A stretch of DNA of 64,000 nucleotides from a plasmid. This document shows, one piece after another, positions 7,714-55,662 of the stretch. Below the pieces are notes generated by a model. That model worked only from the letters and a program-made list of their open reading frames with translations, was not told the DNA's origin and did not search any database. Position 1 is the first letter of the stretch, and each line of letters begins with the position of its first letter. A program made the position numbers and the translations under genes. Location of the stretch: the NCBI RefSeq assembly GCF_054482525.1, contig NZ_JBTHVG010000007.1, one strand, 5' to 3'.

Positions 7714-7800
7714 AGCAATTTTGCCAACGGCATGGGGAGGCCGCTACTTTTTCAACAGAATCGGCCGCACACAGCCATTCGGCTCAACAGAACCCTGCCT

Positions 7801-8958: not shown

Positions 8959-8987
8959 GGTGTGCCGGGAACCGCCGAGCCACGAGA

Positions 8988-9519: not shown

Positions 9520-9552
9520 GCGGACGTGGCGAAATCGGTAGACGCAGCAGAC
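9520..9552 (+). tRNA. tRNA-Leu(UAA) exon 1 fragment (positions 1-32: acceptor 5' strand, D-arm, anticodon-stem 5' strand), cut by IS26
   Basis: GCGGACG-UG-GCGAAAUCGGUAGACGC-A-GCAGA-C has a tRNA-Leu-like D-arm; acceptor strand is exactly complementary to CGUCCGC at 12929-12935 on the minus strand. Confidence 0.6.
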
Positions 9553-10372: not shown

Positions 10373-11381
10373 GGACTTTTCAAGTCTCGGAAGGTTTCTT
10401 CAATCTGCATTCGCTTCGAATAGATATTAACAAGTTGTTTGGGTGTTCGAATTTCAACAGGTAAGTTAGTTGCTAGAACCCATGGCTCCTTTGCCGACGC
10501 TGAGTAGATTTTAGGTGACGGGTGGTGACAATGAGTCCGTGTCGAGCGCTGATTTTTTCGGCCTTTAGAGCGAGATTTATACAATAGAATTTGGCATGAG
10601 ATTGGATTGCTTTTAGTCAGCCTCTTATAGCCTAAAGTCTTTGAGTGACTAGATGACATATCATGTAAGTTGCTGATAGGTTTCCAGTTTTCCGCTCCTA
10701 GGTCTGCATATTGTACTTTTCCTCTTACTCGACTTAACCAGTACCAACCCAGCTTCTCAACGGATTTATACCATGGCACTTTAAAGCCAGCATCACTGAC
10801 AATGAGCGGTGTGGTGTTACTCGGTAGAATGCTCGCAAGGTCGGCTAGAAATTGGTCATGAGCTTTCTTTGAACATTGCTCTGAAAGCGGGAACGCTTTC
10901 TCATAAAGAGTAACAGAACGACCGTGTAGTGCGACTGAAGCTCGCAATACCATAAGTCGTTTTTGCTCACGAATATCAGACCAGTCAACAAGTACAATGG
11001 GCATCGTATTGCCCGAACAGATAAAGCTAGCATGCCAACGGTATACAGCGAGTCGCTCTTTGTGGAGGTGACGATTACCTAACAATCGGTCGATTCGTTT
11101 GATGTTATGTTTTGTTCTCGCTTTGGTTGGCAGGTTACGGCCAAGTTCGGTAAGAGTGAGAGTTTTACAGTCAAGTAATGCGTGGCAAGCCAACGTTAAG
11201 CTGTTGAGTCGTTTTAAGTGTAATTCGGGGCAGAATTGGTAAAGAGAGTCGTGTAAAATATCGAGTTCGCACATCTTGTTGTCTGATTATTGATTTTTCG
11301 CGAAACCATTTGATCATATGACAAGATGTGTATCCACCTTAACTTAATGATTTTTACCAAAATCATTAGGGGATTCATCAG
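10373..11381 (-). mobile_element. Truncated IS10 (outer end plus 5' two-thirds of the transposase gene), cut by IS26
   Basis: Outer end ...CTGATGAATCCCCTAATGATTTTGGTAAAAATCATTAAG (complement at 11343-11381); partial transposase MCELDILHDSLYQFCPELHLKRLNSLTLACHALLDCKTLTLTELGRNLPTKARTKHNIKRIDRLLGNRHLHKERLAVYRWH... (IS4 family, IS10-like) whose frame runs into IS26. Confidence 0.85.
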
Positions 11382-11416
11382 CGTATAGTGTTTTGCAGTT
11401 TAGAGGAGATATCGCG

Positions 11417-12277
11417 ATGCATACGCGGAAGGCAATAACGGAGGCGCTTCAAAAACTCGGAGTCCAAACCGGTGACCTCTTGATGGTGCATGCCTCACTT
11501 AAAGCGATTGGTCCGGTCGAAGGAGGAGCGGAGACGGTCGTTGCCGCGTTACGCTCCGCGGTTGGGCCGACTGGCACTGTGATGGGATACGCGTCGTGGG
11601 ACCGATCACCCTACGAGGAGACTCTGAATGGCGCTCGGCTGGATGACGAAGCCCGCCGTACCTGGCTGCCGTTCGATCCCGCAACAGCCGGGACTTACCG
11701 TGGGTTCGGCCTGCTGAATCAATTTCTGGTTCAAGCCCCCGGCGCGCGGCGCAGCGCGCACCCCGATGCATCGATGGTCGCGGTTGGTCCGCTGGCTGAA
11801 ACGCTGACGGAGCCTCACGAACTCGGTCACGCCTTGGGGGAAGGATCGCCCGTCGAGCGGTTCGTTCGCCTTGGCGGGAAGGCCCTGCTGTTGGGTGCGC
11901 CGCTAAACTCCGTTACCGCATTGCACTACGCCGAGGCGGTTGCCGATATCCCCAACAAACGGTGGGTGACGTATGAGATGCCGATGCTTGGAAGAGACGG
12001 TGAAGTCGCCTGGAAAACGGCATCGGATTACGATTCAAACGGCATTCTCGATTGCTTTGCTATCGAAGGAAAGCCGGATGCGGTTGAAACTATAGCAAAT
12101 GCTTACGTGAAGCTCGGTCGCCATCGAGAAGGTGTCGTGGGCTTTGCTCAGTGCTACCTGTTCGACGCGCAGGACATCGTGACGTTCGGCGTCACCTATC
12201 TTGAGAAGCATTTCGGAACCACTCCGATCGTGCCTCCGCACGAGGCCGTCGAGCGCTCTTGCGAGCCTTCAGGTTAG
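11417..12277 (+). CDS. aac(3)-II: Aminoglycoside N(3)-acetyltransferase AAC(3)-II (gentamicin/tobramycin resistance)
   Basis: 286-aa product MHTRKAITEALQKLGVQTGDLLMVHASLKAIGPVEGGAETVVAALRSAVGPTGTVMGYASWDRSPYEETLNGARLDDEARRTW... Confidence 0.95.
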   Translation: MHTRKAITEALQKLGVQTGDLLMVHASLKAIGPVEGGAETVVAALRSAVGPTGTVMGYASWDRSPYEETLNGARLDDEARRTWLPFDPATAGTYRGFGLLNQFLVQAPGARRSAHPDASMVAVGPLAETLTEPHELGHALGEGSPVERFVRLGGKALLLGAPLNSVTALHYAEAVADIPNKRWVTYEMPMLGRDGEVAWKTASDYDSNGILDCFAIEGKPDAVETIANAYVKLGRHREGVVGFAQCYLFDAQDIVTFGVTYLEKHFGTTPIVPPHEAVERSCEPSG

Positions 12278-12289
12278 AGGCCGTCGACA

Positions 12290-12832
12290 ATGATAATCTG
12301 GATCAACGGACCTTTCGGCGCCGGAAAGACGACGCTCGCTAAGCGGCTGCGCGATCGGCGTTCCAAATCGCTGATCTTTGACCCCGAGGAAATCGGGTTC
12401 GTGGTGAAAGAAACGGTCCCCATGCCAGCGAGCGGAGACTATCAGGATCTCCCCTTGTGGAGGGGACTTACGATCGCGGCGGTCAGGGAGATTCGAAGGA
12501 ATTACTCGCAGGACATCATCATCCCAATGACGCTCGTGCACCCGGACTATCTGACTGAGATACTCGACGGGGTAAGGCGGATCGACGATCAGCTGCTGCA
12601 CATCTTTCTGACGCTCAACGAGGACCTATTGCGTCACCGGATCGCGAACCAGACCATGCATCCTGACCCGAATCGAAATGCGGAGATTCGAGAGTGGCGA
12701 TTAGCGAATGTCGCCCGATGCTTGGCCGCAAGGGAACGGCTTCCATGCACAACCCGTGTTCTCGATAGTGGTGCACACACCAGCGATGAACTCGCAGCGA
12801 TGGTGCTCGACGGAATCGATGGGCGCACCTGA
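12290..12832 (+). CDS. tmrB: TmrB-like ATP-binding protein (tunicamycin resistance family)
   Basis: 180-aa ORF with P-loop MIIWINGPFGAGKTTLAKRL; known aac(3)-II/tmrB pairing. Confidence 0.85.
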   Translation: MIIWINGPFGAGKTTLAKRLRDRRSKSLIFDPEEIGFVVKETVPMPASGDYQDLPLWRGLTIAAVREIRRNYSQDIIIPMTLVHPDYLTEILDGVRRIDDQLLHIFLTLNEDLLRHRIANQTMHPDPNRNAEIREWRLANVARCLAARERLPCTTRVLDSGAHTSDELAAMVLDGIDGRT

Positions 12833-12924
12833 TCGCCTTCGACGCCTGCGCAAAGCGTAGCGCGAGGGTGGCGGGCTCACGACCAAACGCCCAGAGGTCG
12901 ATCATCGCAGGGATGTTTGGCTTT

Positions 12925-12975
12925 GTGGTGCGGACGACGGGACTCGAACCCGTACTCTCACAGAGAAGCAGATTT
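12925..12975 (-). tRNA. tRNA-Leu(UAA) exon 2 (A35 to CCA: anticodon AA, anticodon-stem 3' strand, long variable arm, T-arm, acceptor 3' strand)
   Basis: Minus-strand RNA AAAA-UCUGC-UUCUCUGUGAGAGU-ACGGGUUCGAGUCCCGU-CGUCCGC-A-CCA; stems pair with the exon 1 fragment at 9520-9552. Confidence 0.6.
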
Positions 12976-13189
12976 TCGTACCACCTCGACTTTCGCCGCC
13001 GTCTGATGACGTTCGTGGTCTGGACTGTCCCTTCGCCATTGCCCGAAGGCTTTAGGCGCCGCCCGTCCAGTCTCTACACCTTCCCCCGAAGGGGCTTGGC
13101 TCGGGATTGGCTTAGGGTATTGCCCGTTAGCGTTCCCCGACTTTGAGCGGTTCTACTCCGCGGATTTCCCCGCGGGCACTCCAATTTTA
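12976..13189 (-). ncRNA. Group I (tRNA-Leu-type) intron, about 214 nt, inserted between U34 and A35 of tRNA-Leu(UAA)
   Basis: Follows exon ...CUU; ends with G before exon 2; contains elements recalled from cyanobacterial tRNA-Leu and Azoarcus tRNA-Ile introns (CCCGAGCCAAGCC; GAAGGUGUAGAGACUGGACGGG...CCUAA). Confidence 0.6.
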
Positions 13190-13199
13190 AAGTCTGCTG

Positions 13200-14019
13200 G
13201 GCACTGTTGCAAAGTTAGCGATGAGGCAGCCTTTTGTCTTATTCAAAGGCCTTACATTTCAAAAACTCTGCTTACCAGGCGCATTTCGCCCAGGGGATCA
13301 CCATAATAAAATGCTGAGGCCTGGCCTTTGCGTAGTGCACGCATCACCTCAATACCTTTGATGGTGGCGTAAGCCGTCTTCATGGATTTAAATCCCAGCG
13401 TGGCGTTGATTATCCGTTTCAGTTTGCCATGATCGCATTCAATCACGTTGTTCCGGTACTTAATCTGTCGGTGTTCAACGTCAGACGGGCACCGGCCTTC
13501 GCGTTTGAGCAGAGCAAGCGCGCGACCATAGGCGGGCGCTTTATCCGTGTTGATGAATCGTGGGATCTGCCACTTCTTCACGTTGTTGAGGATTTTACCC
13601 AGAAACCGGTATGCAGCTTTGCTGTTACGACGGGAGGAGAGATAAAAATCGACAGTGCGGCCCCGGCTGTCGACGGCCCGGTACAGATACGCCCAGCGGC
13701 CATTGACCTTCACGTAGGTTTCATCCATGTGCCACGGGCAAAGATCGGAAGGGTTACGCCAGTACCAGCGCAGCCGTTTTTCCATTTCAGGCGCATAACG
13801 CTGAACCCAGCGGTAAATCGTGGAGTGATCGACATTCACTCCGCGTTCAGCCAGCATCTCCTGCAGCTCACGGTAACTGATGCCGTATTTGCAGTACCAG
13901 CGTACGGCCCACAGAATGATGTCACGCTGAAAATGCCGGCCTTTGAATGGGTTCATGTGCAGCTCCATCAGCAAAAGGGGATGATAAGTTTATCACCACC
14001 GACTATTTGCAACAGTGCC
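13200..14019 (-). mobile_element. IS26 copy 3 (820 bp)
   Basis: GGCACTGTTGCAAA inverted repeats; 8 bp to its left (13192-13199) are GTCTGCTG, the reverse complement of CAGCAGAC. Confidence 0.95.
13252..13956 (-). CDS. tnpA: IS26 transposase Tnp26 (copy 3)
   Basis: Translation identical to copy 2. Confidence 0.95.
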   Translation of the reverse strand: MNPFKGRHFQRDIILWAVRWYCKYGISYRELQEMLAERGVNVDHSTIYRWVQRYAPEMEKRLRWYWRNPSDLCPWHMDETYVKVNGRWAYLYRAVDSRGRTVDFYLSSRRNSKAAYRFLGKILNNVKKWQIPRFINTDKAPAYGRALALLKREGRCPSDVEHRQIKYRNNVIECDHGKLKRIINATLGFKSMKTAYATIKGIEVMRALRKGQASAFYYGDPLGEMRLVSRVFEM

Positions 14020-15095
<1,076 letters not shown>

Positions 15096-15251
15096 TGAGA
15101 GCAGAGATAGCGCTGATGTCCGGCGGTGCTTTTGCCGTTACGCACCACCCCGTCAGTAGCTGAACAGGAGGGACAGCTGATAGAAACAGAAGCCACTGGA
15201 GCACCTCAAAAACACCATCATACACTAAATCAGTAAGTTGGCAGCATCACC
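15096..15251 (-). mobile_element. IS1 fragment (left inverted repeat plus first ~33 codons of insA), interrupted by the Tn2/Tn3 IRR
   Basis: Complement of GGTGATGCTGCCAACTTACTGATTTAGTGTATGATGGTGTTTTTGAGGTGCTCCAGTGGCTTCTGTTTCTATCAGCTGTCCCTCC...; ends where the Tn3-family IR begins. Confidence 0.85.
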
Positions 15252-16535
15252 TCCCTGTTTAAAATCATAATTTGGTTGTTCTGTTCTTGAGTTATTAAGT
15301 AGAGTTCTTATCAGTGTTTGCCAAGCATGATTGATAAATTTATTTTCTGATTCTTTAAAATATCGTCTGATTAAAGCACATAAATCTTCGACACTTTTCT
15401 GACGAGCGCTAGCTGCCCAACGGCCCCCTTCGGTTTGCACCATTGAACGTTGTACACTGTCTCCTAACTGAGCGATAAATTTCTGTTCATCGTCAAGTTG
15501 CATGTTTTCATTTATGATTAATTCATACAAAGCAAGAAAAACAGCTTGATAGTAACGAGGACATTCTTGAGATGAAGATGCATTGCCCAGAATGTGTGAT
15601 CTAAAGTTCAAATTATTTGCATCAAATAATTTTTGAATCATCTCATAAACGAAGAGGTAATTATTGACAATTTTATCTGCACCATTTGTCTGAATGTAAT
15701 TCTCTAATTGAGTTCGTGTATGGATTGCATGACTCGTCGAACCTTCACCGTAAAATGTATCGAGCGATGTTGATCCTGATGTTGGCTTATCATCTAAAAA
15801 TATATAGCCCAAGATATTTGCAACTAACTCTTCATCGTCAGAGTCTCTAATGCTAGGCCTACTAATGATATGATTTCTAATATAGAAATGATTGTCTATA
15901 TTTATTCCATAATCGAGTCCATCATTGCAAATTGATATGTTATGTATTTTATTCAGTCCCATTATATCGCTATGTGTAGTATCTCCTCTTATAATTGTCG
16001 ATATTTTCCTTACTAACTCTGAAAAATTACTAACGCACCCCGCACTTCGTAGTTCTTGTTTTGATAAAATTTTACCATTGGAATTTATGCGTCGAAACAC
16101 TTCGTCAATGTGGTCCTCTGTTGAAGAGTATTCAGATATAGCAAATCTATAGCGAGCAATTAATGTAGAACTTTCGCGGGATAGCACTGGCTCTTTTTGT
16201 TGAAGTTTACCACTGTCTTTTAGTTGTTTTGTTAATGCAATGGCATCTAAATTAAAGTATTTACCATTTAATGAAAATCGCTGCTCAATAAAACTCATTA
16301 AAGCTTCTAGTCTTTGCATTCCATCAAGGATTTCTCTTTTGTTGTCAATGGAAACAAACAATAGCAAAGGGATAGGGTATTGCTGAGTCATTGATGAAAT
16401 CAGTGCTGTTTTCTCTTCGAGGGACCATACTAATTTTCTTTGGTATCTTCGATTTATAATTAATTTATCATCCAGATACCACTCGTATAATTCTTCTGCT
16501 GTCTTGGAGTCAATATCTAAGTTTTCATTAGCCAT
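15225..16535 (-). CDS. DUF262 (ParB-like nuclease/NTPase, GmrSD-family N-terminal domain) protein, C-terminus replaced by IS1 sequence
   Basis: 436-aa ORF with DUF262-like motifs (RRYQRKLVWSLEEK...ILDGMQRLEAL); about 33% GC; last 8 codons and stop (GDAANLLI*) are encoded by the IS1 inverted repeat. Confidence 0.5.
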   Translation of the reverse strand: MANENLDIDSKTAEELYEWYLDDKLIINRRYQRKLVWSLEEKTALISSMTQQYPIPLLLFVSIDNKREILDGMQRLEALMSFIEQRFSLNGKYFNLDAIALTKQLKDSGKLQQKEPVLSRESSTLIARYRFAISEYSSTEDHIDEVFRRINSNGKILSKQELRSAGCVSNFSELVRKISTIIRGDTTHSDIMGLNKIHNISICNDGLDYGINIDNHFYIRNHIISRPSIRDSDDEELVANILGYIFLDDKPTSGSTSLDTFYGEGSTSHAIHTRTQLENYIQTNGADKIVNNYLFVYEMIQKLFDANNLNFRSHILGNASSSQECPRYYQAVFLALYELIINENMQLDDEQKFIAQLGDSVQRSMVQTEGGRWAASARQKSVEDLCALIRRYFKESENKFINHAWQTLIRTLLNNSRTEQPNYDFKQGGDAANLLI

Positions 16536-16819
16536 TAGATGTATCTCGAGTATTTAGTTAAGAAACTGATAGGTCAGTATTTGCATCAATGTTCATTGAA
16601 TTTGTATCCGAAGTCAATCTGATGTAGGAACTTCAAAACTGCGCAAAACACGCAAATACGCACAAGAAAGTAGGGCTGCGCTTGGAATTCGGAAAATAAA
16701 CCACATCAAAACTACTTTTTAGCCAAATAACGTTTGGGAATCACCAGAATGGTGGGACAACAGCGGTTTTAGTGCCCTAAATCGTACGTTTTCATCCAGT
16801 TGCCCCTCAAACCCCATGT

Positions 16820-17152
16820 TCAAGTCAGAATAGTGGACAGGCGGCCAAGAACTTCGTTCATGATAGTCTCCGGAACCCGTTCGAGTCGTTTTCCGCCCCG
16901 TGCTTTCATATCAATTGTCCGGGGTTGATCGCAACGTACAACACCTGTGGTACGTATGCCAACACCATCCAACGACACCGCAAAGCCGGCAGTGCGGGCA
17001 AAATTGCCTCCGCTGGTTACGGGCACAACAACAGGCAGGCGGGTCACGCGATTAAAGGCCGCCGGTGTGACAATCAGCACCGGCCGCGTTCCCTGCTGCT
17101 CATGACCTGCGGTAGGATCAAGCGAGACAAGCCAGATTTCCCCTCTTTCCAT
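16820..17152 (-). CDS. pemK: PemK (MazF/Kid-family endoribonuclease toxin)
   Basis: MERGEIWLVSLDPTAGHEQQGTRPVLIVTPAAFNRVTRLPVVVPVTSGGNFARTAGFAVSL... Confidence 0.9.
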   Translation of the reverse strand: MERGEIWLVSLDPTAGHEQQGTRPVLIVTPAAFNRVTRLPVVVPVTSGGNFARTAGFAVSLDGVGIRTTGVVRCDQPRTIDMKARGGKRLERVPETIMNEVLGRLSTILT

Positions 17153-17153
17153 G

Positions 17154-17411
17154 TCAGATTTCCTCCTGACCAGTCGCCGGTGCATCCAGCCATTCTCGTT
17201 CTTCAGCTGATATTTCAGCATTCGGATCACACTGTGCCAGTAGCTCAGCCAGTGAATATTGCGGGCGTCTGTACGGCTCAACAATCAGCCGGCCATTATC
17301 AATGACCATGCCAACTTCATTATCTGTGCCCAGAGACAGCGCATTCAGCAGTGCCGGTGGGACGGTCAGCATAACTGAGCCGCCAACCCTCTTCAGTCGG
17401 GTGGTATGCAT
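17154..17411 (-). CDS. pemI: PemI antitoxin
   Basis: 85-aa ORF MHTTRLKRVGGSVMLTVPPALLNALSLGTDNEVGMVIDNGRLIVEPY... directly upstream of pemK. Confidence 0.85.
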   Translation of the reverse strand: MHTTRLKRVGGSVMLTVPPALLNALSLGTDNEVGMVIDNGRLIVEPYRRPQYSLAELLAQCDPNAEISAEEREWLDAPATGQEEI

Positions 17412-17503
17412 TCTTCACCTCCATAAAAGTTATATTTAAATATAACATCCACTAAAAAAACACACCAGGCTTTAACGCACAATGTTTAATAAAAATATAA
17501 CTT

Positions 17504-18157
17504 TCAACCAAACAGTAAACCCAGCGTGGTTGCTTCCATATGCAGCAATACCGGCAGCAGCAGGCCACCACTTCTGATCCTGGCCACTGATGTAATCAAC
17601 CCCACCAGGAACAGTTCTGCCAGTGTCAGCAGGTTCTGATACTGGCTGTGCGCGGCGACGAACAACAACGACGTTATCAGCGCCCCCAGCCACATCGTCC
17701 AGCAGTACCGTGAACGGAAGACGTTCAGCATAATCCCCCGGAACAGCGTTTCCTCATTCAACGGGGCAAGGATAAAGATGGTCAGCAACGTCAGGATCAC
17801 GTCAGGTATGGACTTATCGGCAAAAAGTTTCGTCATAAATGGCTCAGCAGGCAGAGCCAGCGCCTTACCGAGCAGAAATACACCGACATACACCACGGCC
17901 ATCGCACCGACCAGCCACGGTACGCCAACGTTGCGCAGCTGACCAACGACCGGTAGCGGAGCTATCCAACGGCGGTATACCAGGAAAACACACAGCAGGT
18001 ACATCAGAACAGTACCATGACTGAAGAACAAATAGTTTTTTCCTGATCCATAAAGCAGAACGGCCTGCTCCATGACAAATCTGGCTCCCCAACTAATGCC
18101 CCATGCAGCCAGCATAACCAGCATAAACTGCAGATATTGATTACGTGTTTGAATCAT
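17504..18157 (-). CDS. CPBP-family intramembrane metalloprotease (CAAX protease-like)
   Basis: 217-aa multi-pass membrane ORF with EE..FRG and ..H....N-like motifs (NEETLFRGIMLNVF; FVAAHS). Confidence 0.5.
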   Translation of the reverse strand: MIQTRNQYLQFMLVMLAAWGISWGARFVMEQAVLLYGSGKNYLFFSHGTVLMYLLCVFLVYRRWIAPLPVVGQLRNVGVPWLVGAMAVVYVGVFLLGKALALPAEPFMTKLFADKSIPDVILTLLTIFILAPLNEETLFRGIMLNVFRSRYCWTMWLGALITSLLFVAAHSQYQNLLTLAELFLVGLITSVARIRSGGLLLPVLLHMEATTLGLLFG

Positions 18158-18779
18158 TGCATCGCCTGTAAATTTTTAACTTGTCCTATTTTTGTCATTA
18201 CCACGTATATACACATGTATAACAATTCAGATATCGTTACCAGGATATGCCGCATCAGCGGCATGGAAGGCGGCACTCTGTTGTTTCATATGATACAGGA
18301 GTAAAACCGCCGAAGCCCGGCGTAAGCCGGTACTGATTGATAGATTTCACCTTACCCATCCCCAGCCCTGCCAGACCATACCCGCTTTCAGCCATGAGAG
18401 AGCTTCTGTGCGCGGTCGGAGTGGTCCCGACGAGGGTTTACCCGAAGTCGGGGCGTATCTCCGCGTTAGCGGGCCGTGAGGGCCGCTTACGAGCGTGTAC
18501 TGAGAACTTCCAGCGAGAAGACTGACAGCGATGAAGATGTAGTTACAACATTCATAATTAAAAGCGACTCTGTTCCGGCCCTTTGGGCCGGGGCGGGGCC
18601 GCTTTTCAGTTATGAGGGAGGGGCTTTGTGGTTTCGGTTCTGCGCTGGACCGGGGTTTTTCTGGAGGTTGTTTTTGTGTGTTGTAACTAAAGTGACTCCG
18701 GTAGGGGCCCGCGGCTTGCGGTGGGAGGTGCATATCTGTCTGTCCACAGGACAGGCAGTGAATAGGTTTTCTTTTTAAA

Positions 18780-19095
18780 TGAATGTAATTAAGTAGTTTA
18801 AAGGAGATATAAACAGGTGTTTAAAAGATACATTGCACCCTGTAAGGCTGGCGCCTGGTGCTTTATGACATGAACGGTTGTAACCTTATGGGGAAGTCCA
18901 TTGCAGTTAAATGTGGATAAGCAAAATTCCCCGTCTGTGAGGCGTGTTTTGTATCAAAAACAGGGGGGGCCAGATGCACCAGAAGGTGGATGATGAGGTT
19001 GTTTTTTGTATGAGGTGCTGCTTTTTTGTTCGCTGGCAGGCTTCAGGCGTGCGAATGCCTCCGGTGCGGGCCGGATTATTCAGAAGAGGTCACTT
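18780..19095. other. RepFII origin region (oriR) downstream of repA1, approximate
   Basis: AT-rich stretch with a DnaA-box-like TTATCCACA (complement near 18912) immediately 3' of repA1. Confidence 0.35.
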
Positions 19096-19953
19096 TCAGG
19101 GGGAAGCTGTGGCCAGCCGGCTGTAATTACGGTTACGTGACAGAATCATGCGCTCTTTCACACGACGCTCCACTTCGCGTTTTACCGCCTCACGATTGGC
19201 AGTGAAGCGCCCTTCCGAGATTTCACGCGTCAGCTGCCGTTTCACCAGGGTGACGATATCCTGACGTTCCCTGTTCGCATCACGACGCGCACGGGCACGC
19301 TTTATTCCACGGGACTTAAGCTCTGTCTGGTAACTGCGGAAACGCTCACGCACAAAACGCCAGGCTTTCGCTATCAGTTCATCCATACCCAGGGTATCCA
19401 GCCCCTGCTTTTTGCGCTGTCTGTTTTCCCATTCAACACGACTGCGGCGCGCAGCAACCACTGCATCCTCAGACACATCAAGGGCGGCAAATAACGCCGG
19501 TGTGAACGTGATATCGGTCGGAATGTAGCACCCGATAAGCGGATCATATTCCGTCTGGTAGGTAATCAGTCCCAGCTCTGCAAGGAACGTCAAGGCTCGG
19601 GAGGCCCGGGTGATGGAGAGTTTTCCGGCAGCAGACTCCGTCGCCAGTCCGCACTCAATGGCCAGCGTAGTGATGGAGCACTGGACGCGGTTGGCCAGCG
19701 GGTCATAGTGAAAACACAGCCCCTGCAGCAGCGCATCAATAGCCCGGCGACGCAGTACCGGTGGCATGCGCCGACGCAGTCCCTTCGAACGGGCATGTGC
19801 CACATGAATGGCGAAATCAAAACGGGAGGTGAAGCCCACCGCCTTTTCCATCAGTTTTTCGCAGAACTTCAGCGTTCCGGCACCTTCACGGGGTGTGAAC
19901 ACCGGATTCGGATTTTTAACCTGTGAATAGTATTTTTGAAGGAGATCAGCCAT
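19096..19953 (-). CDS. repA1: IncFII replication initiator RepA1
   Basis: 285-aa product [56 protein letters not shown]...; RBS GGAGGGGGAC. Confidence 0.93.
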
Positions 19954-24793: not shown

Positions 24794-27700
24794 TCAGTCT
24801 CCGCCCAGGGTTTTCTCTTTCTGCAGGTCACGAACCATATCCCGCTCCATCTGCTGCAGTCGCTCCTGCAGCAGATTTTCCCGGGCAACCTCCCGGACCG
24901 CTTCCCGCACCCGTTGTGGTTCACGCAGTACACTCTCCGGCAGCGCGGCTTCCCGTTCAGATATGGCAGACCGGTCACGCTCCAGCCCGGCAATATCCCT
25001 GACAGCCTGCTCTGTTTTGCCGTCCGGCAGGTCAGGTTTGTTCTCTGCCATTTTACGGACAATTTCATCCGCACGGCGTTCCGTTTCACGGCGGATGGCC
25101 TCTTCAGCCTGCCGCTGTGCCAGTACCTCTGCCGTGACCGGTTCGCCATTTCCGGCTCCCGGCTGAACGCTGTTGTCCGGGATATCCCCCCACACGCGAC
25201 CACCGGTGATGGTTCTGGGATTCCACGGACGACCTTCACCGGCGATTCTTACCACCACACCGCTGTCAGGATTATCACGGGCAATCCGGACACCATCCTG
25301 CATATTATCAGCCAGCAGGCTCTCTCCGTTACGGCTGCCCTGCAGGGCCACGAACTGCGCATCCCCGCTGCCTTTCACCCGGCCTTCACCACTGAAGCCC
25401 CGCAGCCCGTTTCCGTCATCCGTGGTCAGCGGGTTCAGCCAGATACCAGCTGACTTGCCGTTACGGTCAAAAGCCGGCAGTGCCACATACGGCTGCGGAT
25501 ATTTGCGCCCGGGTGCAATAAACCGTGCAGGACTGTCTCCCCCGGCCAGCCCTGCCTGACGGAGAACGGCACGGCCGGCCACCACGTCCCGCAGCTCCCG
25601 CGCCGTACTGAACAGCCGCTCTGCATTCATGACCTCCCGGTCCGATTTCGGCTCTAGCACATCGTGGGCAGTTCCTTTCTGTACGGCATTGTTGATGGCA
25701 TCCGTCCAGCCCTGACGGTTATCGGTGTACACCTGCACATGCTGCTTCATACGCGACAGGGCCACGTAGGCTGACTCAAAGCCGGCCATCAGTTTCCGGT
25801 TACCTTCCGTGCCTTCAAGCGCGATGGCAAAGGTTTCACTTGCCCCCTGCGCACCGTGGGCGGTGATGGCATAAGCCAGGTCAATATGTTGCTCTGCCCG
25901 CTCCTGACCTGGGCGAATCACCCGGATCTGCTGTCCGTCCGACAGCGTGACACTGTCACCGGAAACCGCTGTCACCGTCCAGACGCTGTTGGCCACATAA
26001 CCTCGCTCCCGGTCACTCTTCGTGAAGCGCATCCGGTCACCGGTTCCCACCCGGATGGTGTCCGGGGTGTACAGTGTGACGCCTTCAGCCACCGCCTCCC
26101 GGGGCGAAATCAGCCGCGTGTTACCTTCCGCATCCTCCAGGGTTATCAGCCCGTCATCCTTGCTGATACCGGCAATCCGGTGATACACACTATCCACCAG
26201 GGCAAGGGCATCCGGGTTATTCTCCCAGGTGGAGAGACGACGCAGTTCTCCGTCACGTATATTCGCTGTGTTCAGGACAGGCACCATGACCTGCTCTTTG
26301 CCCAGCTCACCGGCCTTTTCCCGTGCATCATGAATCATGCTGTTCAGTACGCGCCGGTCCTCATTCAGGTGTGTGACAATCAGCGTCTGCTCCCGTGCTT
26401 CCGGTGTCCTGCCGGTATAGTCGCGGACAATGGCTTCATACAGTGTCATGGGGATATCCGGGAAAGCCTCGCCTTTCAGCATCGCCTTCTGCTGCGCTTC
26501 TGCCAGTTTCGCTTCCTGGCTGTGACTGAACTCCGTCACGGAGTGCTCCGGTGCCCATGCGCCCTCCTGACGGGGAACCTGAGACGGTTTCACACTCTCA
26601 AGCCCGGACAGTGCCCTTTCCACATCCCGGTTAATCAGGCTGTATACCGCCTCCCGCAGTTCCGGCGTCTGACGCACAATCTCCTTCATGATGACCACAT
26701 CGGCAGCACTGCGCGTCTGCTGGAGACGGAAAGGCTGACCGGGCGCGATGGCCTGCAACTGGTCCGTGTCACCACTGGCCACGGCACGACCGCCACCGGC
26801 CGCAATCAGGGCGTATGCCCGTGCCATGTCGGTATTGCCCACCATAGAGCTCTCATCGAGCAGGAACAGCGTGTTGCTGAAATTCGGCGTTTCTCCGCTG
26901 CGCTGCAGCAGCTGCGTGTCATGCAGAAAGGACGCCAGCGTCTGTGCATCCACGCCGGCGCTGCGCATCTCACCGACCGCACGGTGCGTGGGCCCCAGCC
27001 CCACGACACGGGGACGTTCACTCTCCGGCAGCATGTTCACGGCTGACATCACCGCCCGGAACTGTGTGGTCTTACCCACACCGGCATAGCCCTGCACCAC
27101 CGTGAAACGGTCGGACGTTTCCAGTATCATGCGGGTAGCGGCACGCTGTCCTGATGTCAGTTTCTCCATGAGTTCGCCAGGTACTCTCTCCATCAGTGGC
27201 GTGACCGCCTCCTTACCTTCGAGAATATGGCGAAGAATGCTCTTTTCTGCCTCATACGACGCACGGGAAACCAGCAGGCCTGTGCCATAGCCTTTTGCCA
27301 CATCCACATACAGTAAATCACCGCGTTTTATCTGCGCATTGATTTCCCCTCCCAGTTCAGTAAAACTGGTTCCTTCTGCAGCAAACGACTTCGCCTCTGT
27401 CAGCAGGTCCACCATGCTGAAGGCCAGGTTTTTACTTTCCACCACAGGAAGCGCCAGATGAATAGCCTGCTGTGCCGGCGTGTGAAGCCCGGTTTTCTGC
27501 AGACTGATAGCGGTTTCCAGCAATGTCTCACCGGCACGCGCCTTTATCTGCTCAGAAACCACCGTAAAGGAGGGATGGCGGGCAAGTTTTTCCGCAGTAC
27601 GGGTTTCATCCAGTGAGGAATACAGCCGGACATCACGACCGCTGCGGGCCAGACCGTTCAGGGTGGCGTTGTCCATTGCCATCTGTGTGACGGAGGCAAA

Positions 27701-30064
27701 AACCTTCGCACTGTCGCTGACGGAATGCCCGGGCGTTTCCACCCAGCCGTTCTCCAGCTTCAGTGCCATGAATGGTGAATCGCTCACAGGCAGGGAGGCC
27801 GGTTCAGCCCGCCCCGGCACAACAACCGTCATCGCATCTTCACTGACGGATGCCACCTGCAGGCGGTCACCGCCGGAGACGCGGAGTCCGGGAATTTTCC
27901 CTGTCACCCTCAGTCGCTCGCCGTCTGCCACCGGCATTTTTTCCGGCCGGAACAGCGACCAGCTGCTGTCCAGGGAGGAAATACGCACCACCTGCGTTTC
28001 ATCCTGCGCATCCCGCAGGGTCAGGCTGTTACTCTGCGCCGTCACCCGGTCGATAACATAGCGGTCATGACTGCGTGTCTCCGGGTTCCACTGCTCCATC
28101 ACCATCCCCGGACGGTACATATCCCGCAGATAACGGCTCCGGCTGTCCAGCCAGACCGGCGACAGGGCGGTCATGGTTACCTCCGGGCGTCCGAGCACGC
28201 CCTGTGTTTTCAGCTCACTGCGAATGGCCTGTGTCAGTATGGCCTGTTCCCGTACCCCGCTGACCTGTGCCACGCTCTCTTCTCCGGCTTTCACGCTGGC
28301 AGCAAAATCTCCTGCCAGCCGGGCATAGCGGACATTACGGTCCGGTTCACTGATGATGGTGGCCGGCCGCTGTTCTCCCCCCTGCCAGCGATATGTGTTC
28401 ACCCCGGCATCTTTCATGGCCATCAGTGCACTGCCTGTACCGGTTCGCTGCCCGCTGTCGGTTATCAGGACCTGTACGTTATGACGTGCGGCACCGTCCA
28501 GCAGGGTTAACGTCTCTTTCAGGGAGAGTTTTTCGCCCTGGTCAACGATAACAGTATTGCCCGGCGTGAAGGCCATGCCCTCCTGCAGCTGACGACGTCC
28601 GGTTATCAGCTCACCGGACAGCCGTTCATCCTGCTTCAGGTTCATCTGCGAGCGACGGTCAGCGGCGATAATCTGCACCTCCCGCCCCTGCTCCCGGGCC
28701 ATCATGACCAGCTCCGCCACCCGCTCACGCTGCCCGGCTGCACCGCCCTGCCCGGACACAATAGCCAGCGACGGGCGATCCTGTGCCAGAACACTGACCG
28801 CATCGCTGTAACCGGCCGTCCGGGGGACACTTTTCTCCGGATGTACGGTCACCCGGTTCTGTTTCATGATGTCACGACTGAGTGCCCGGACTGACAGCTC
28901 ATCGAGCACATGAATCCCGGACGTGAACAGCCCCTTCTCACGATCGAGGGGGATAAGCTGCTCACGGCTGATGGCCTCATCGATACCGGCGCGTGCCCGT
29001 TCAATCACACCATTTTCCGGCGGCAGTATGCCGACCGTTCTGGCCAGCACGTCCGTGTACGTAAACTGCACTTTGCGTTCACTTAATCCGGCAATGGCCT
29101 GTGTCACCGCCTGCTGCACATCCGGCCCGTCCTGTGAAGCGGGTCCGGGCGTCTGCGTGCGGGTCTCCGCCCGTTGGTCCGCCGCGTCACGATACGCCCG
29201 GATGTCGAACCCGGTTTCCTTCAGCGTCTGCATCCATTCAGCCATTCTGACTTCAGGATCGACGTGCTGTTTGGATTTTCGCGTATCCAGTGCCGCCACA
29301 TCCCGGGATTTCAGCGAGGCGTCTTCCCCGACGGCCTCCCGGATAGCCTGTGAGCGTCCGGAGAAGGCCTCCACCGGTACGCCCGGCATCTCCCACATAC
29401 CGTGCTTACCAACCACTTCCGTTTCATAGCCTAGCGCCTCAACCTGCTCTTTCAGTTTTTCCCGGTAGAGCCTGCCGAAGGCAATCTGATTAGCGTACAC
29501 ATTCTCAATGAACCCCGTTTTCCCCACTTTGTCACTGCTCAATGTCTTCCACTCGCCGTTATGCTGCGTGACATTGGCCACTACCGCATGTGTGTGTAAC
29601 TGTGGTTCCTGATCGCGACTGGTGTCGTGGTTAAACAGTGCCATCACCAGATTACCGGTCAGCACCGTTTCTGACTGTCCGTCCGTCATAACCCGTGTGG
29701 AAGCCAGCGCCTCCACCTGACGGACAGCAAAATCCACGGCCTGGTTATGTGCATCAATAAGACGTTTATCACCGCCTAACATGGCCATCACGGAGACACT
29801 TTTGGGGGCGGAGAAGGTCAGGTCGTAGCCGGGACGATGCTTATTACTGCCATCCTGCATGCGGCTTAAATCCGCTCCGTCCGGCAGCTTCCCCTCCAGA
29901 AGACGGGTAAAAACATCCTTATCGACGCTGCCCTGCAGCCCCAGCTGTTCAGCCCCCCTGCCGGCCCAGCGTTCTCCCATGCTGCCCAGCACATAGTAAT
30001 TATCCTTGTCGGTATAATAGTTACCGGCACTTCCGGCCGATCTGACCTGCGCGATACTCATCAT
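24794..30064 (-). CDS. traI: TraI relaxase/helicase
   Basis: About 1756-aa product starting MMSIAQVRSAGSAGNYYTDKDNYYVLG...; relaxase N-terminus and Walker-type helicase motifs. Confidence 0.95.
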   Translation of the reverse strand: MMSIAQVRSAGSAGNYYTDKDNYYVLGSMGERWAGRGAEQLGLQGSVDKDVFTRLLEGKLPDGADLSRMQDGSNKHRPGYDLTFSAPKSVSVMAMLGGDKRLIDAHNQAVDFAVRQVEALASTRVMTDGQSETVLTGNLVMALFNHDTSRDQEPQLHTHAVVANVTQHNGEWKTLSSDKVGKTGFIENVYANQIAFGRLYREKLKEQVEALGYETEVVGKHGMWEMPGVPVEAFSGRSQAIREAVGEDASLKSRDVAALDTRKSKQHVDPEVRMAEWMQTLKETGFDIRAYRDAADQRAETRTQTPGPASQDGPDVQQAVTQAIAGLSERKVQFTYTDVLARTVGILPPENGVIERARAGIDEAISREQLIPLDREKGLFTSGIHVLDELSVRALSRDIMKQNRVTVHPEKSVPRTAGYSDAVSVLAQDRPSLAIVSGQGGAAGQRERVAELVMMAREQGREVQIIAADRRSQMNLKQDERLSGELITGRRQLQEGMAFTPGNTVIVDQGEKLSLKETLTLLDGAARHNVQVLITDSGQRTGTGSALMAMKDAGVNTYRWQGGEQRPATIISEPDRNVRYARLAGDFAASVKAGEESVAQVSGVREQAILTQAIRSELKTQGVLGRPEVTMTALSPVWLDSRSRYLRDMYRPGMVMEQWNPETRSHDRYVIDRVTAQSNSLTLRDAQDETQVVRISSLDSSWSLFRPEKMPVADGERLRVTGKIPGLRVSGGDRLQVASVSEDAMTVVVPGRAEPASLPVSDSPFMALKLENGWVETPGHSVSDSAKVFASVTQMAMDNATLNGLARSGRDVRLYSSLDETRTAEKLARHPSFTVVSEQIKARAGETLLETAISLQKTGLHTPAQQAIHLALPVVESKNLAFSMVDLLTEAKSFAAEGTSFTELGGEINAQIKRGDLLYVDVAKGYGTGLLVSRASYEAEKSILRHILEGKEAVTPLMERVPGELMEKLTSGQRAATRMILETSDRFTVVQGYAGVGKTTQFRAVMSAVNMLPESERPRVVGLGPTHRAVGEMRSAGVDAQTLASFLHDTQLLQRSGETPNFSNTLFLLDESSMVGNTDMARAYALIAAGGGRAVASGDTDQLQAIAPGQPFRLQQTRSAADVVIMKEIVRQTPELREAVYSLINRDVERALSGLESVKPSQVPRQEGAWAPEHSVTEFSHSQEAKLAEAQQKAMLKGEAFPDIPMTLYEAIVRDYTGRTPEAREQTLIVTHLNEDRRVLNSMIHDAREKAGELGKEQVMVPVLNTANIRDGELRRLSTWENNPDALALVDSVYHRIAGISKDDGLITLEDAEGNTRLISPREAVAEGVTLYTPDTIRVGTGDRMRFTKSDRERGYVANSVWTVTAVSGDSVTLSDGQQIRVIRPGQERAEQHIDLAYAITAHGAQGASETFAIALEGTEGNRKLMAGFESAYVALSRMKQHVQVYTDNRQGWTDAINNAVQKGTAHDVLEPKSDREVMNAERLFSTARELRDVVAGRAVLRQAGLAGGDSPARFIAPGRKYPQPYVALPAFDRNGKSAGIWLNPLTTDDGNGLRGFSGEGRVKGSGDAQFVALQGSRNGESLLADNMQDGVRIARDNPDSGVVVRIAGEGRPWNPRTITGGRVWGDIPDNSVQPGAGNGEPVTAEVLAQRQAEEAIRRETERRADEIVRKMAENKPDLPDGKTEQAVRDIAGLERDRSAISEREAALPESVLREPQRVREAVREVARENLLQERLQQMERDMVRDLQKEKTLGGD

Positions 30065-30145
30065 AAACGTATATCCCTTTGACATATCCCGGTATCAATC
30101 CCACAATGGATATACACAAGACATATCCACATAAGGAGGCAAATA

Positions 30146-30373
30146 ATGGAAACCACCGTATTTTTCAGCAACCGCAGCCAGGCGGTCAGACTGCCAAAAG
30201 CGGTTGCATTGCCGGAAAACGTAAAACGCGTTGAAGTGATTGCTGTCGGACGAACCAGAATCATTACGCCAGCCGGAGAGACATGGGACGAATGGTTCGA
30301 CGGACACAACGTCAGCGCCGATTTTATGGATAACAGGGAACAGCCCGGCATGCAGGAAAGGGAGTCATTCTGA
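30146..30373 (+). CDS. vapB: VapB-family antitoxin (AbrB/SpoVT-like)
   Basis: 75-aa ORF METTVFFSNRSQAVRLPKAVALPENVKRVEVIAVGRTRIITPAG...; overlaps vapC start. Confidence 0.75.
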   Translation: METTVFFSNRSQAVRLPKAVALPENVKRVEVIAVGRTRIITPAGETWDEWFDGHNVSADFMDNREQPGMQERESF

Positions 30374-30771
30374 TGCTGAAGTTTATGCTCGATACCAACA
30401 TCTGCATTTTCACGATAAAGAACAAACCCGCCAGCGTCAGGGAGCGTTTTAACCTGAACCAGGGGAGAATGTGTATCAGTTCGGTCACCCTGATGGAGCT
30501 GATATATGGTGCAGAAAAAAGCCAGATGCCTGAACGTAATCTCGCTGTGATCGAGGGATTTGTTTCCCGCATTGATGTTCTGGATTACGACGCTGCCGCA
30601 GCCACACACAGCGGCCAGATAAGAGCAGAACTTGCCCGTCAGGGACGCCCTGTCGGGCCATTTGATCAAATGATCGCAGGTCATGCCCGCAGTCGGGGAC
30701 TGATTATTGTGACTAATAACACCCGGGAATTTGAACGTGTGGACGGTCTGAGAATTGAAGACTGGAGCTGA
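30373..30771 (+). CDS. vapC: VapC PIN-domain toxin
   Basis: 132-aa ORF MLKFMLDTNICIFTIKNKPASVRERF... with PIN acidic residues. Confidence 0.8.
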   Translation: MLKFMLDTNICIFTIKNKPASVRERFNLNQGRMCISSVTLMELIYGAEKSQMPERNLAVIEGFVSRIDVLDYDAAAATHSGQIRAELARQGRPVGPFDQMIAGHARSRGLIIVTNNTREFERVDGLRIEDWS

Positions 30772-30779
30772 CCTGTTCA

Positions 30780-32933
30780 TCAGAAATCATCTCCCGGCTC
30801 AACATCCTCCCCGCGCTCCCGGTGCACATTGATGTTCACCTCTTCACGACGCTGCATCTTCTGCTGGATATCCGGATTCTGCTCCCGTTGCCATGCCTCA
30901 TAAACGGCCATATCCACCACTTCACCGGATTCACTGATCCCGGGTGGCAGTTGCTGTTCCATCTCTTCTTCCGGTTTCATTTTCAGCTCCTGCTCGATCC
31001 CCCCTGCCGGAACATTCACACCTGCATCTGACTTCTTATCGTTGATGGCAGGAGACACCGGCTGTTGCGGCTGTTCAGCCTGAGTCACGTCTTCTCCGGA
31101 AACAACCTCCGGGACATCCGGTTCGAAGAGGCTGGCCATCTGACGACCTTCTGCTTCCCTTGCGGCAAGTACGGCACTCAGACGGTTCTCCATTTCCGGG
31201 TTGATGTCACGCGGAATAAACTCCGGAGCGACCTTCGGTCGTGTCTGATATTTCAGGGAGAGTTTTACTGCCGGATACGGTCCGGGCAGGGTGACATAAC
31301 AGGTCAGATCCGGCAGAGACTGAATGTCGGAATAACTGACCAGCGTCTGACGCTCCATATCCTTACCGGTCGATACCCCGTCACGTACCGGATCAGCACC
31401 GTAGGAATACTGCTCGCTGGCTTTCAGGTGCTCTTTCTCACCAATTTCACCGGCAGCGAACTCTGCAATCTTATGGCTGGGAGAACGGAAAAAGGCACGG
31501 GTGTTCATGACGTCAAACAGCGTGGCAGCCGCTTTCTCACCGTAGATATCTTCCAGCTGGGCATAGGACTGGATACCAAACACATAACAGCCACCGAACT
31601 TACGGGCTTCCGGCAGGATCTCCACCAGATCCGGCAGTTTGTGTAACGTGGGTAACTCGTCACAGAAAAACCACACACGACGGTTACGGTTTTCTCCCAT
31701 TGCCAGCAGACCACGAATAGCAATGGACAGCCACATGGAGATCACCGGCTTCAGGGAGGCATGGGTGTCGGCGTTCGACGAAATAAACAGCCAGCCGTTT
31801 TTCTGATCTTCCCGGACACCACGCATCCAGTCACGGATGGTGAAGGGCTCACCGTTATGCTCAATCCCCTGCAGGTAACGGATGGCTTTCACGTAGTTGG
31901 TCAGCACAGCACGGATGGATATGGCCGTTTTCTCGATTTTCTCTTCCACCAGGTTGGCCGCCGGTGAATTACGCAGGAAGGTACGCAGCTTTTCAATTTT
32001 GATGGAAAGCAGTGTGTCCACCAGTTTGCTGTAGCTGCGGTTGGGGTCATTACGCATCAGGTATGCCGCTTCCGCAAAAATGGTACGTCCTGAACCCTGC
32101 CAGAACGGGTCCTCTTTTGTCCCCATCGGGATCAGAGTATTTGCGGTATTATCAAAATCTGGCTGTGTCAGGCACTCCTTCCACAAATCCCAGGCAGCAC
32201 AGCGTGCATCCAGCGGATTCAGGATTTTATCGATGGAGGGATCATAGTAACTTTTAACAAATTCCCCCGAACGGTCATAAATCACCACCATATCACCACG
32301 CTGACGGGCGTAGTTGGCCAGACGACGGATAACCTCCGACTTACCGGCCCCGACAGTGCCGTGCAGACAGAAGTTCTGGATTTCAGAATCCCGGATAATC
32401 GGCAGATCGCCAATCCGGATATCGGAATCCTTGCCATCTTTTTTCAGCATCCTGGCCACCTCTTTCGGATTGTCAGTCAGCTGACGACCACCTGTGATTT
32501 CATTTTCGCTCTGTTGTTTACCCTGACGCCCCAGAATCCAGGAGACAACAAAGAAGGTGATCAGGCAGATAACCAGGGCCACGACAGACGCCAGAACGAA
32601 TGCCGACCATAACTGCTCACCGCACCAGATCATATATTTATCATGCAGTACCTGAGCCGCGTTCATCCGGAAGGTTTTGCCGTAATACTGGATCTCATAG
32701 ACCGGCTGGGACCTGATTAAATCCCGCATGCCTTCCAGCGTGGTGCACCACCAGTAAATGCAGCCATTCACAAACGTCTGCCAGCTTATTTTTACCCATA
32801 AAACCAGACCAACTAGGATCCAGAAAAAAATAAACAGGCAGTAAAGTATGATATTGGCGATCTGACTGAACATGCGGATACGCATGGACGCAATCTGACC
32901 GCCCTGGGTCATATCCTTTGCGTTAAAACTCAT
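30780..32933 (-). CDS. traD: TraD type IV coupling protein
   Basis: 717-aa ORF with Walker A GTVGAGKS and acidic C-terminal tail. Confidence 0.95.
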
Positions 32934-39305: not shown

Positions 39306-39837
39306 TTTTTCCTCCGTACATCTGCAAAACGGTATCCACCCGCGCCATAAAACCGGCGGCATCCGTTGCCCCCTGTAAAAGCGGTAATGCCTCAAGCGTG
39401 TTGACGTTGACCAGGAAGGTGGTCGGTGTGGCCACCGGGATATTCGGGAAGAAGGTCTGCATCACCTCCGGTGGCACCGGTAATGCTTCAGGAAAGGCCG
39501 TATCCCCCTGACCATCCAGGGTGTAGGAAAAAACGGAAAAGCCGTACTGCTGTGCCAGCTGTTTCAGTACCGGGTCAAACTGGTGACAGTAAGGGCAATG
39601 CCCCTGCATAAACAGCACCACCTTCCAGTCGGCCAGGTTAACCTGCCTGCCATTACTGAGGCGGAACCAGCGGGGAGCCGGCTTTGCTGTCCTGGCTGAC
39701 GTGCCTGCTGCCGGTTGTGCAGGCTGCGTAGCCATACCCTGCGGATTCCAGAGTCGCTCTATTTCATCCCGGGTGGAGGCCTGCACAGCAGCGGCGCTCA
39801 GCAACAGGGTGAACAGCAGTGATTTAGTGAGAGACAT
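39292..39837 (-). CDS. trbB: TrbB thioredoxin-like periplasmic disulfide isomerase
   Basis: 181-aa ORF with signal peptide and CPYC active site. Confidence 0.85.
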   Translation of the reverse strand: MSLTKSLLFTLLLSAAAVQASTRDEIERLWNPQGMATQPAQPAAGTSARTAKPAPRWFRLSNGRQVNLADWKVVLFMQGHCPYCHQFDPVLKQLAQQYGFSVFSYTLDGQGDTAFPEALPVPPEVMQTFFPNIPVATPTTFLVNVNTLEALPLLQGATDAAGFMARVDTVLQMYGGKKGAK

Positions 39838-40108
39838 GTCCGCCCTCCTGCTGCCCTTCCATCATGGCCTGTTGCCTGGCTTCCAGTGCCTCACGCTCTT
39901 CCCGGCTGACACGGGCAATCCATGCATCCAGCACCTGGTATGCGCCGAACAGTACGAGAATGGCCGCAATCAGCTCCGCCAGAAAAAAAGCCATCCAGGG
40001 TTTGCTGTAAACAAGACGGGCGACGATATGAAACCAGACACCCAGGGAAAATACCCACATTCCCGTAATATCAAGCCGGGGTAAAGAGAATCTGCGTTTA
40101 CTTATCAT
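39824..40108 (-). CDS. traQ: TraQ pilin chaperone
   Basis: 94-aa membrane ORF in the expected position. Confidence 0.8.
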   Translation of the reverse strand: MISKRRFSLPRLDITGMWVFSLGVWFHIVARLVYSKPWMAFFLAELIAAILVLFGAYQVLDAWIARVSREEREALEARQQAMMEGQQEGGHVSH

Positions 40109-40188: not shown

Positions 40189-40503
40189 ATGGAAAAGCGA
40201 TCTTTTAAAGAAAAACTGGAAATAATCAGAAACATAATAAGAGAGTCGTTACCGGGAAATGCGGCAATTATTGCGCTGATATATGCAGCATCACATTCAT
40301 TACCGGTCAATGCCTTCCCTGACTATCTTGTAATAAGTTTATTAAGTATCGCAGCAGGCATCGTTGTATTATGGTTATTTTCAATTATCTATATTTATTT
40401 TTGTGAGCTATTCAGAAGCCACTGGATTGCGGTATGGTTTATCATATGGTCTTCAGTAATCAACCTCATTATTTTGTATGGTTTTTATGACCGTTTTATA
40501 TGA
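40189..40503 (+). CDS. artA: ArtA (anti-tra-strand ORF)
   Basis: 104-aa low-GC hydrophobic ORF on the strand opposite the tra operon between traQ and trbA, as in F. Confidence 0.6.
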   Translation: MEKRSFKEKLEIIRNIIRESLPGNAAIIALIYAASHSLPVNAFPDYLVISLLSIAAGIVVLWLFSIIYIYFCELFRSHWIAVWFIIWSSVINLIILYGFYDRFI

Positions 40504-40504
40504 C

Positions 40505-40852
40505 TTAGCCTGTCATAAGCCCCCTTATAAAAAACCACATCACTCCGGACCATACCGATGACAACACAATACAGATAAATATTCTTCTGAACCTGTCGAA
40601 GCTCGTAACGTCCGGTAATGCGGCCGCAACTATTGAAACAACCAGTGCTGCGCCCTGACTCATAATTGCACCACACAGAAACCAGAGACTGGCGGTAAGC
40701 ACATATAAACACGCGATATTAATAACAAGGAAAACCAGTGAGCTCAGGAGAAACATTTTCCTGTCATTACGCTCAGAAAAGAAATAACCGGCAATAATGA
40801 CAAATATTAACAGAACAACACCTGTAAACATTTTCAAATAATCTTCACTCAT
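40505..40852 (-). CDS. trbA: TrbA
   Basis: 115-aa membrane ORF in F gene order. Confidence 0.7.
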   Translation of the reverse strand: MSEDYLKMFTGVVLLIFVIIAGYFFSERNDRKMFLLSSLVFLVINIACLYVLTASLWFLCGAIMSQGAALVVSIVAAALPDVTSFDRFRRIFICIVLSSVWSGVMWFFIRGLMTG

Positions 40853-55660: not shown

Positions 55661-55662
55661 AG

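Follow-up and report, generated by a model that had tools for sequence, protein, structure and literature searches.

The vapB/vapC pair situated between traD and traI in the window (the whole 64,000-nt stretch of plasmid contig NZ_JBTHVG010000007.1 that was analysed) is very probably the canonical enteric VapBC type II addiction module, known as MvpAT, VapBC2ST or STBORF1/2, and as such a long-standing constituent of F-like transfer regions rather than an insertion peculiar to one lineage. On the tra strand opposite this module runs an uninterrupted frame, trbH, whose start and stop overlap the neighbouring tra genes. Based on comparison of the aligned sequences, we lean slightly towards regarding trbH as a translated bridge leading from traD to traI, in which case selection would act on the open frame and not on a TrbH protein. 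The observation on the trbH frame is a modest, testable addition to a known vapBC locus.

Identity and geometry of the vapBC module

As the earlier note had described, a vapB/vapC pair lies between traD and traI and is directed against the tra operon; its coordinates proved exact (Table 1) and its family matches lie far beyond chance. The vapB ORF matches NCBIfam TA_anti_VapB (NF040493) with an E value of 3e-32 (110.6 bits, cut-off 60), and the vapC ORF matches NCBIfam NF010285, 'tRNA(fMet)-specific endonuclease VapC', over residues 1-132 of 132 with an E value of 3.4e-87 (289.1 bits, cut-off 143). Additionally, the product of vapC is matched by the Pfam PIN family (E 1.9e-21), and Pfam MazE_antitoxin scores 24.4 bits on VapB, slightly below its cut-off of 24.7. 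VapB displays an N-terminal AbrB/MazE-type DNA-binding domain and a C-terminal toxin-binding tail. The two ORFs share one base in the TGATG at 30371-30375, where the vapB stop overlaps the vapC start. D7, E42, D98 and E119, the active-site residues named for Shigella VapC (PMC8923223), are all intact in VapC and invariant in the alignment. Compared to the S. sonnei proteins of PDB entry 6sd6, VapC is identical at 129 of 132 positions (97.7%), differing at S80, D124 and I128, and VapB at 73 of 75, differing at F7 (L) and N55 (S); a further Shigella VapBC crystal structure, PDB 3tnd, is matched by both proteins. Nothing was found that speaks against the VapBC identification.

The module is convergent with traD and divergent from traI, and its transcription therefore enters the 3' end of traD and not the 5' end of traI. 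Hence, the antisense transcription of vapBC across the beginning of traI, which had been assumed at the outset, was misoriented. The program-made traI ORF (24794-30085) contains an extra in-frame upstream ATG (MSKGYTF-MMSIAQ; 30085-30065). A traI start at 30085 was rejected and is probably not a real one, since this ATG is nothing but the vapBC -35 box (TTGACAT) read on the other strand; the annotation begins at 30064.

Table 1 Features of the traD-traI junction in the window
Feature	Position	Strand	Remarks
traI (relaxase/helicase)	24794-30064	-	annotated start ATGATG, MMSIAQ..., as in identical plasmid
716-bp segment	30061-30776		in filled plasmids, missing from empty-site F-like plasmids (alignment)
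'trbH' ORF	30061-30780	-	239 codons, fully antisense to vapBC and the vapBC promoter; layout identical in F
operator-like repeats around vapBC promoter	30066-30129	+	two inverted repeats and a direct repeat
sigma-70-like vapBC promoter	30079-30107	+	TTGACA, 17 nt, CACAAT; 10/12 consensus matches
Shine-Dalgarno AAGGAGG	30133-30139	+	6 nt before vapB ATG
vapB antitoxin	30146-30373	+	75 aa; NCBIfam TA_anti_VapB match
vapC toxin	30373-30771	+	132 aa; PIN-domain tRNA(fMet) endonuclease
traD (coupling protein)	30780-32933	-	ends ..PGDDF-stop, 8 nt past vapC stop

Control region and proposed mode of action

The candidate promoter is located in the 81 bp that separate the start codons of traI and vapB. 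Around it, an inverted repeat GTATATCCCTT/AATGGATATAC occupies 30069-30079 / 30105-30115, a second one, TGGATAT/ATATCCA, is found at 30107-30113 / 30123-30129, and a 24-nt direct repeat extends over 30066-30089 / 30105-30128; promoter and operator repeats together differ from those of pWR501 by one base only. For the Shigella orthologue, two vapO operator sites are known (PMC8923223; 10.1101/2025.06.29.662172). By analogy, the upstream repeats would correspond to the vapO operators of the Shigella and Salmonella modules and represent candidate sites here. A sequence scan for a terminator after vapC returned weak consensus matches only, none of them convincing, and no minus-strand traI promoter was detected by a simple scan inside the inserted segment.

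The mode of action is carried over from orthologues with 97-98% protein identity. Shigella VapBC combines cleavage of tRNA-fMet, autoregulation through vapO, degradation by Lon and post-segregational killing (PMC8923223), and VapBC2ST contributes to the stability of pSLT (PMC5065971). Accepting this transfer, vapBC would have a sigma-70 promoter of its own, adjacent to the start of traI, VapB would bind and neutralise the PIN-domain nuclease VapC, and the VapB-VapC complex would bind the inverted repeats over the promoter, resulting in repression. Upon loss of the plasmid in a daughter cell, Lon would degrade VapB, and the freed VapC would cleave initiator tRNA-fMet, so that translation initiation would be blocked and plasmid-free segregants would stop growing. 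Given the 97.7% identity to Shigella VapC, tRNA-fMet cleavage by this VapC and its neutralisation by VapB can be expected. Likewise, the stabilising role suggested in the earlier note is likely by analogy with the characterised orthologues of pINV and pSLT, and post-segregational killing would be the means by which this allele exerts it. The papers on vagC/vagD (PMC4707298, PMC2887853) deal with other vapBC copies, which are located near ccdAB and the FIA replicon.

Distribution of the module and the filled or empty junction

It had been claimed that in F itself traD is directly followed by traI. This does not agree with the F plasmid record NC_002483.1. There, traD ends at 91957 and traI starts at 92673, and the interval is occupied on the opposite strand by vapC (91966-92364) and vapB (92364-92591), in the same orientation as in the window and with ~96% DNA identity; on the classical map of F, this interval bears the name 'trbH'. 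The same junction and arrangement are present in Shigella pWR501, in pSLT-type Salmonella plasmids, in two plasmids of Serratia marcescens, in Edwardsiella tarda and in Pantoea ananatis. The 716-bp segment was found in 1,291 PLSDB plasmids. Among the 4,199 PLSDB records that match the traD-traI junction, 1,166 carry the module and the remainder show an empty junction; roughly one in four F-like plasmids holds vapBC inside the tra operon. In complete E. coli genomes, the module was detected in 767 of 5,426 and was nearly always plasmid-borne. The comparison of F-like plasmids at the junction thus reveals a module that is ubiquitous and already characterised in this plasmid lineage, and vapBC at the traD-traI junction is therefore already known: it is among the best-characterised plasmid addiction modules, found in its usual place.

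In empty junctions, the traD stop overlaps the traI ATG (TTCTGATGATGAGT). Alignment of these with the carriers (window, F, pSLT, pWR501) delimits the 716-bp segment with sharp ends, the boundaries being ambiguous by 3-6 nt, with TCA/TGA repeats at both ends; the traD stop and the ATGATG start of traI are retained in filled and empty states alike. An origin of the empty site by simple deletion between 6-bp TGATGA repeats was considered and rejected, as it predicts a single ATG where empty sites have ATGATG. The ATGATG of the empty site can be accommodated only by assuming a 3-bp microhomology or else a register shift in which the trbH start is of the ATGATG type. Judged from the alignment, the segment may have been gained or lost.

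The trbH frame opposite vapBC

At its two ends, trbH is interlocked with the flanking tra genes, its ATG overlapping the traD stop (TGATG) and its TGA overlapping the traI start (ATGATGA). The frame is devoid of stops in 7 of the 8 tra-embedded copies examined, some of which are only 73% identical in DNA. Stop-free frames were recorded in the window, F, pWR501, a pSLT-like plasmid, two Serratia plasmids, Edwardsiella and P. ananatis, with DNA identities to the window of 87% for the pSLT-like, 74% for the Serratia and 73% for the Edwardsiella copy. In five diverged traD-traI lineages, trbH still overlaps its tra neighbours at both its start and its stop, and such start/stop overlaps are present in every traD-traI lineage whose junction was read (L004, L006, L007, L008, L093, L094); the junction sequences of F and pWR501 match that of the window. 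In Serratia marcescens pQC19 (L094), it is the stop of an extra ORF, and not that of traD, with which the trbH-like start overlaps. This hypothetical tra-strand ORF (3262-3945 of L094) is located between traD and vapBC/trbH, and its ATGA overlap lengthens the stop-start chain. The flanks of the module measure 81/81/117/114 nt and 8/8/35/77 nt, differences between lineages always being multiples of 3. The final traD codons contain an SD-like GGGAGA, 9 nt upstream of the ATG of trbH. In empty-site plasmids, this element precedes the traI ATG, and an SD-like element before traI is found in every filled lineage.

Between lineages, substitutions land on the third codon positions of vapB and vapC (5/3/39 by codon position for vapC of the window against that of pSLT), and conservation amounts to 95/83/77% for VapC as against 74/54/52% for TrbH. 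Our reading of this pattern is that VapBC is the protein-constrained pair and that the opposite frame appears to be kept merely open. For TrbH, no Pfam or NCBIfam match was obtained at E <= 1, and AlphaFold2 returned a mean pLDDT of 30.5, with values below 50 throughout, from a shallow alignment of five sequences. With neither a family match nor a confident fold, the latter qualified by the shallow alignment, TrbH as a structured protein was rejected.

TrbH figures among the proteins of the F transfer region in PMC5102898. In 'Five shades of F', where protein searches of deposited annotations were used, it was detected in only 8% of MOBF12 plasmids, and vapBC is not mentioned. Modern annotations leave out trbH entirely: annotation pipelines call vapBC and drop trbH, and the overlap is consequently invisible in modern records. 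In the literature search, the trbH-vapBC overlap was encountered in passing only. [quoted passage not shown]

The absence of stops was compared with a codon-resampling null, in which the VapB and VapC proteins were kept fixed and their codons redrawn. Under this null, a mean of 1.9-4.6 stops is obtained and the probability of no stops ranges from 0.004 to 0.13 per lineage. As controls, 80 vapBC homologues retrieved by a genome scan (VapC 70-91% identical) and one copy from a Rhizobium plasmid were used; neither traD nor traI adjoins any of the retrieved homologues. In the 75 non-tra controls that share this frame geometry, 4.1 stops are found on average. Only two of them have an open antisense frame, both at a GC content of at least 0.58, and none of the 37 with a GC content of 0.55 or below does (Fisher p = 9e-7 for five tra lineages and 1.3e-4 with only three counted as independent, both p-values being generous since the lineages are phylogenetically related and the statistics overstate their independence). 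Two copies on E. coli chromosomes or contigs (L010 and L011), which are located away from traD and traI, encode a VapC 90-91% identical to the plasmid VapC; at a GC content of 0.45-0.46, their trbH-equivalent frames contain 4 and 2 stops, respectively.

Since trbH is uninterrupted and its start and stop overlap the neighbouring genes, ribosomes coming from traD would cross the cassette by translating trbH and then reinitiate at traI. The mRNA of the tra operon, which would traverse vapBC in antisense, would in this manner stay translated over the 716-nt stretch, with polarity being avoided and the coupling of traD and traI preserved. Against such a bridge stands a stretch of ~396 nt between trbA and traQ in the same operon, in which no tra-strand ORF of at least 50 aa is present; as this gap is tolerated, an untranslated gap is not obviously lethal to downstream expression. 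Moreover, traI has an SD-like element of its own, and coupling to trbH may be unneeded. Maneewannakul and Ippen-Ihler reportedly observed in 1993 that a kan insertion in trbH of F left transfer normal.

The module in other tra positions and contexts

Embedding of vapBC in a tra operon is not confined to the traD-traI junction. In Pantoea stewartii (L019, 2731-3456; also NZ_CP017590.1 and NZ_CP046563.1), vapBC lies antisense in a tra operon of the F type, where traF precedes it and trbB follows. In this copy, first retrieved as a control, the antisense frame is open over 241 codons, and the antisense ORF is not neatly coupled to the neighbouring genes. In Klebsiella michiganensis (L092, 2578-3203; CP048110), where the plasmid is typed as non-mobilizable, the module is flanked by trbB and traH, and its antisense frame contains one stop. 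The stop in the Klebsiella copy and the loose coupling in that of Pantoea both weigh against the bridge. Taking at least three operon positions together, it is an evenly balanced question whether vapBC is 'translationally transparent', i.e. whether it possesses a stop-free antisense frame without protein function by which a counter-oriented module could be tolerated in a ~30-kb operon without polar effects. In the literature searched, this idea was found neither proposed nor examined.

Outside tra operons, a vapBC homologue of Billgrantia endophytica (L024, 2725-3411) is oriented opposite to its flanking ORFs, and its antisense frame is fully open over 227 aa. Judged by eye from their N-termini, the neighbouring products resemble flagellin and the flagellar cap protein FliD. 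At a GC content of 0.58, this open frame may be a chance outcome.

Alternative explanations

A different history for the locus, in which a TA module was recently inserted into a contiguous traD-traI in a single lineage, adding a stabilisation function and perturbing traI by transcriptional interference, is very improbable in our view. The presence of the module is indeed polymorphic, as the many F-like plasmids with an empty junction and a traD stop overlapping the traI ATG demonstrate, the 716-bp segment is sharply bounded by a short TCA/TGA repeat, and E. coli chromosomes hold close homologues (aa identity of 90-91% for L010 and L011), which indicates that the cassette can move. However, F carries the module as well, and the same junction is found in Salmonella, Shigella, Serratia, Edwardsiella and Pantoea, where the divergence of VapBC parallels that of TraI and TraD; this parallel, together with the occurrence in distant F-like plasmids, argues for long co-residence. 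Interference with traI is, furthermore, made less likely by the divergent orientation of vapBC, whose transcripts run away from the 5' end of traI. Carrying vapBC, F is the archetypal transfer-proficient plasmid, which likewise argues against such interference.

The open frame itself allows two further readings. It is rather doubtful that trbH is a chance 'shadow' ORF which results from codon usage and is neither selected nor translated. Its codons are aligned with those of vapC, which makes it the antisense frame most prone to long shadows, and codon usage of tra genes raises the probability of no stops up to 0.10-0.13 per lineage. No family and no fold (pLDDT 30.5) could be assigned to TrbH, its sequence is poorly conserved, and the two high-GC controls are open as well. 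On the other hand, no traD-traI lineage examined shows an interrupted frame despite 45-60% divergence at third positions, the unconstrained flanks are open too and vary in length by multiples of 3 only, the start and stop overlaps with the tra neighbours have been kept in the five diverged lineages, and 73 of the 75 non-tra homologues, including those on E. coli chromosomes with ~90% protein identity, contain 1-10 stops. The opposite reading, according to which TrbH is a functional transfer protein and vapBC/trbH a true antisense overlapping gene pair, we consider quite unlikely. It could draw on the conserved ORF with its start codon and SD context, on the inclusion of TrbH among the F transfer-region proteins (PMC5102898) and on the antisense 'trbH' transcript of Shigella (10.1101/2025.06.29.662172). 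Yet the low amino acid identity of TrbH (74/54/52%) is explained by constraint on the opposite strand, its N- and C-terminal parts beyond vapBC are unconserved and variable in length, no domain is matched, the AlphaFold2 pLDDT stays below 50 throughout (weak evidence in view of the shallow alignment), and many transfer-proficient F-like plasmids lack trbH.

Significance

A deletion or tag placed at the traD-traI junction, in vapBC or in 'trbH' simultaneously alters genes of either strand. Should the bridge be real, the junction would provide a clean natural case of selection for an open frame alone, with an operon being translated across an antisense insert, and the persistence of a TA cassette inside a transfer operon would be explained.

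The remainder of the window

Positions 19588-54454 of the window are collinear with pM160133_p2 (NZ_CP022166.1), apart from an IS66 insertion that this plasmid carries between trbG and traV. The stretch 55642-56192 aligns to the traM-traJ region of pM160133_p2 at only ~81%, with neighbouring aligned segments at 95-99.9%, which suggests a different regulatory allele or recombination. Positions 1-19600 constitute a resistance region with three IS26 copies (5596-6422, 9552-10373 and 13200-14019) and blaTEM-1 at 14020-15095; within this region, 3410-4968 is 96% identical to a stretch of pM160133_p2 containing the end of dfrA14 and intI1.

Comparison with known systems

Other homologues of the tRNA(fMet)-specific VapC, such as those of E. 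coli (L010/L011), Pseudomonas and Rhizobium, share with the window the two-gene operon and the ATGA/TGATG overlap at 70-91% VapC identity. Unlike the window copy, they are located outside tra operons, and their antisense frame is broken by 1-10 stops in 73 of 75 cases. Within the tra operon of F, artA resembles vapBC in being a counter-oriented ORF between tra genes; in contrast to vapBC, it is not a TA module and occupies a gap without a bridging tra-strand ORF. In the window, an artA-like ORF at 40189-40503 (plus strand), encoding a hydrophobic product of 104 aa, is found between trbA (40505-40852, minus strand) and traQ (39824-40108, minus strand).

The VapBC of Shigella pINV (MvpAT; STBORF1/2 of pMYSH6000/pWR100; PDB 3TND, 6SD6, 5ECW and 9H6A) represents an orthologous locus. 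In pWR501, the same 716-bp segment is present with 97% DNA identity beside traI and traD remnants, and the window allele shares VapC R32 and VapB A58 with the S. sonnei type. Compared to Shigella, VapB F7 and N55 as well as VapC S80, D124 and I128 are its own; in addition, the pINV tra operon is defunct, with traD cut by IS600 in pWR501, whereas the tra operon of the window is intact. VapBC2ST of Salmonella pSLT occupies the same junction with the same spacing and an open trbH frame, at 87% DNA, 95% VapC and 92% VapB identity to the window. Identical architecture and spacing are displayed by the traD-trbH-traI region of F (vapB WP_000450532.1, vapC WP_000911324.1), which agrees with the window in the 81 nt separating the starts of traI and vapB, the 8 nt between vapC and traD and the 239-codon trbH at ~96% DNA identity, and differs from it at three positions in VapB and four in VapC.
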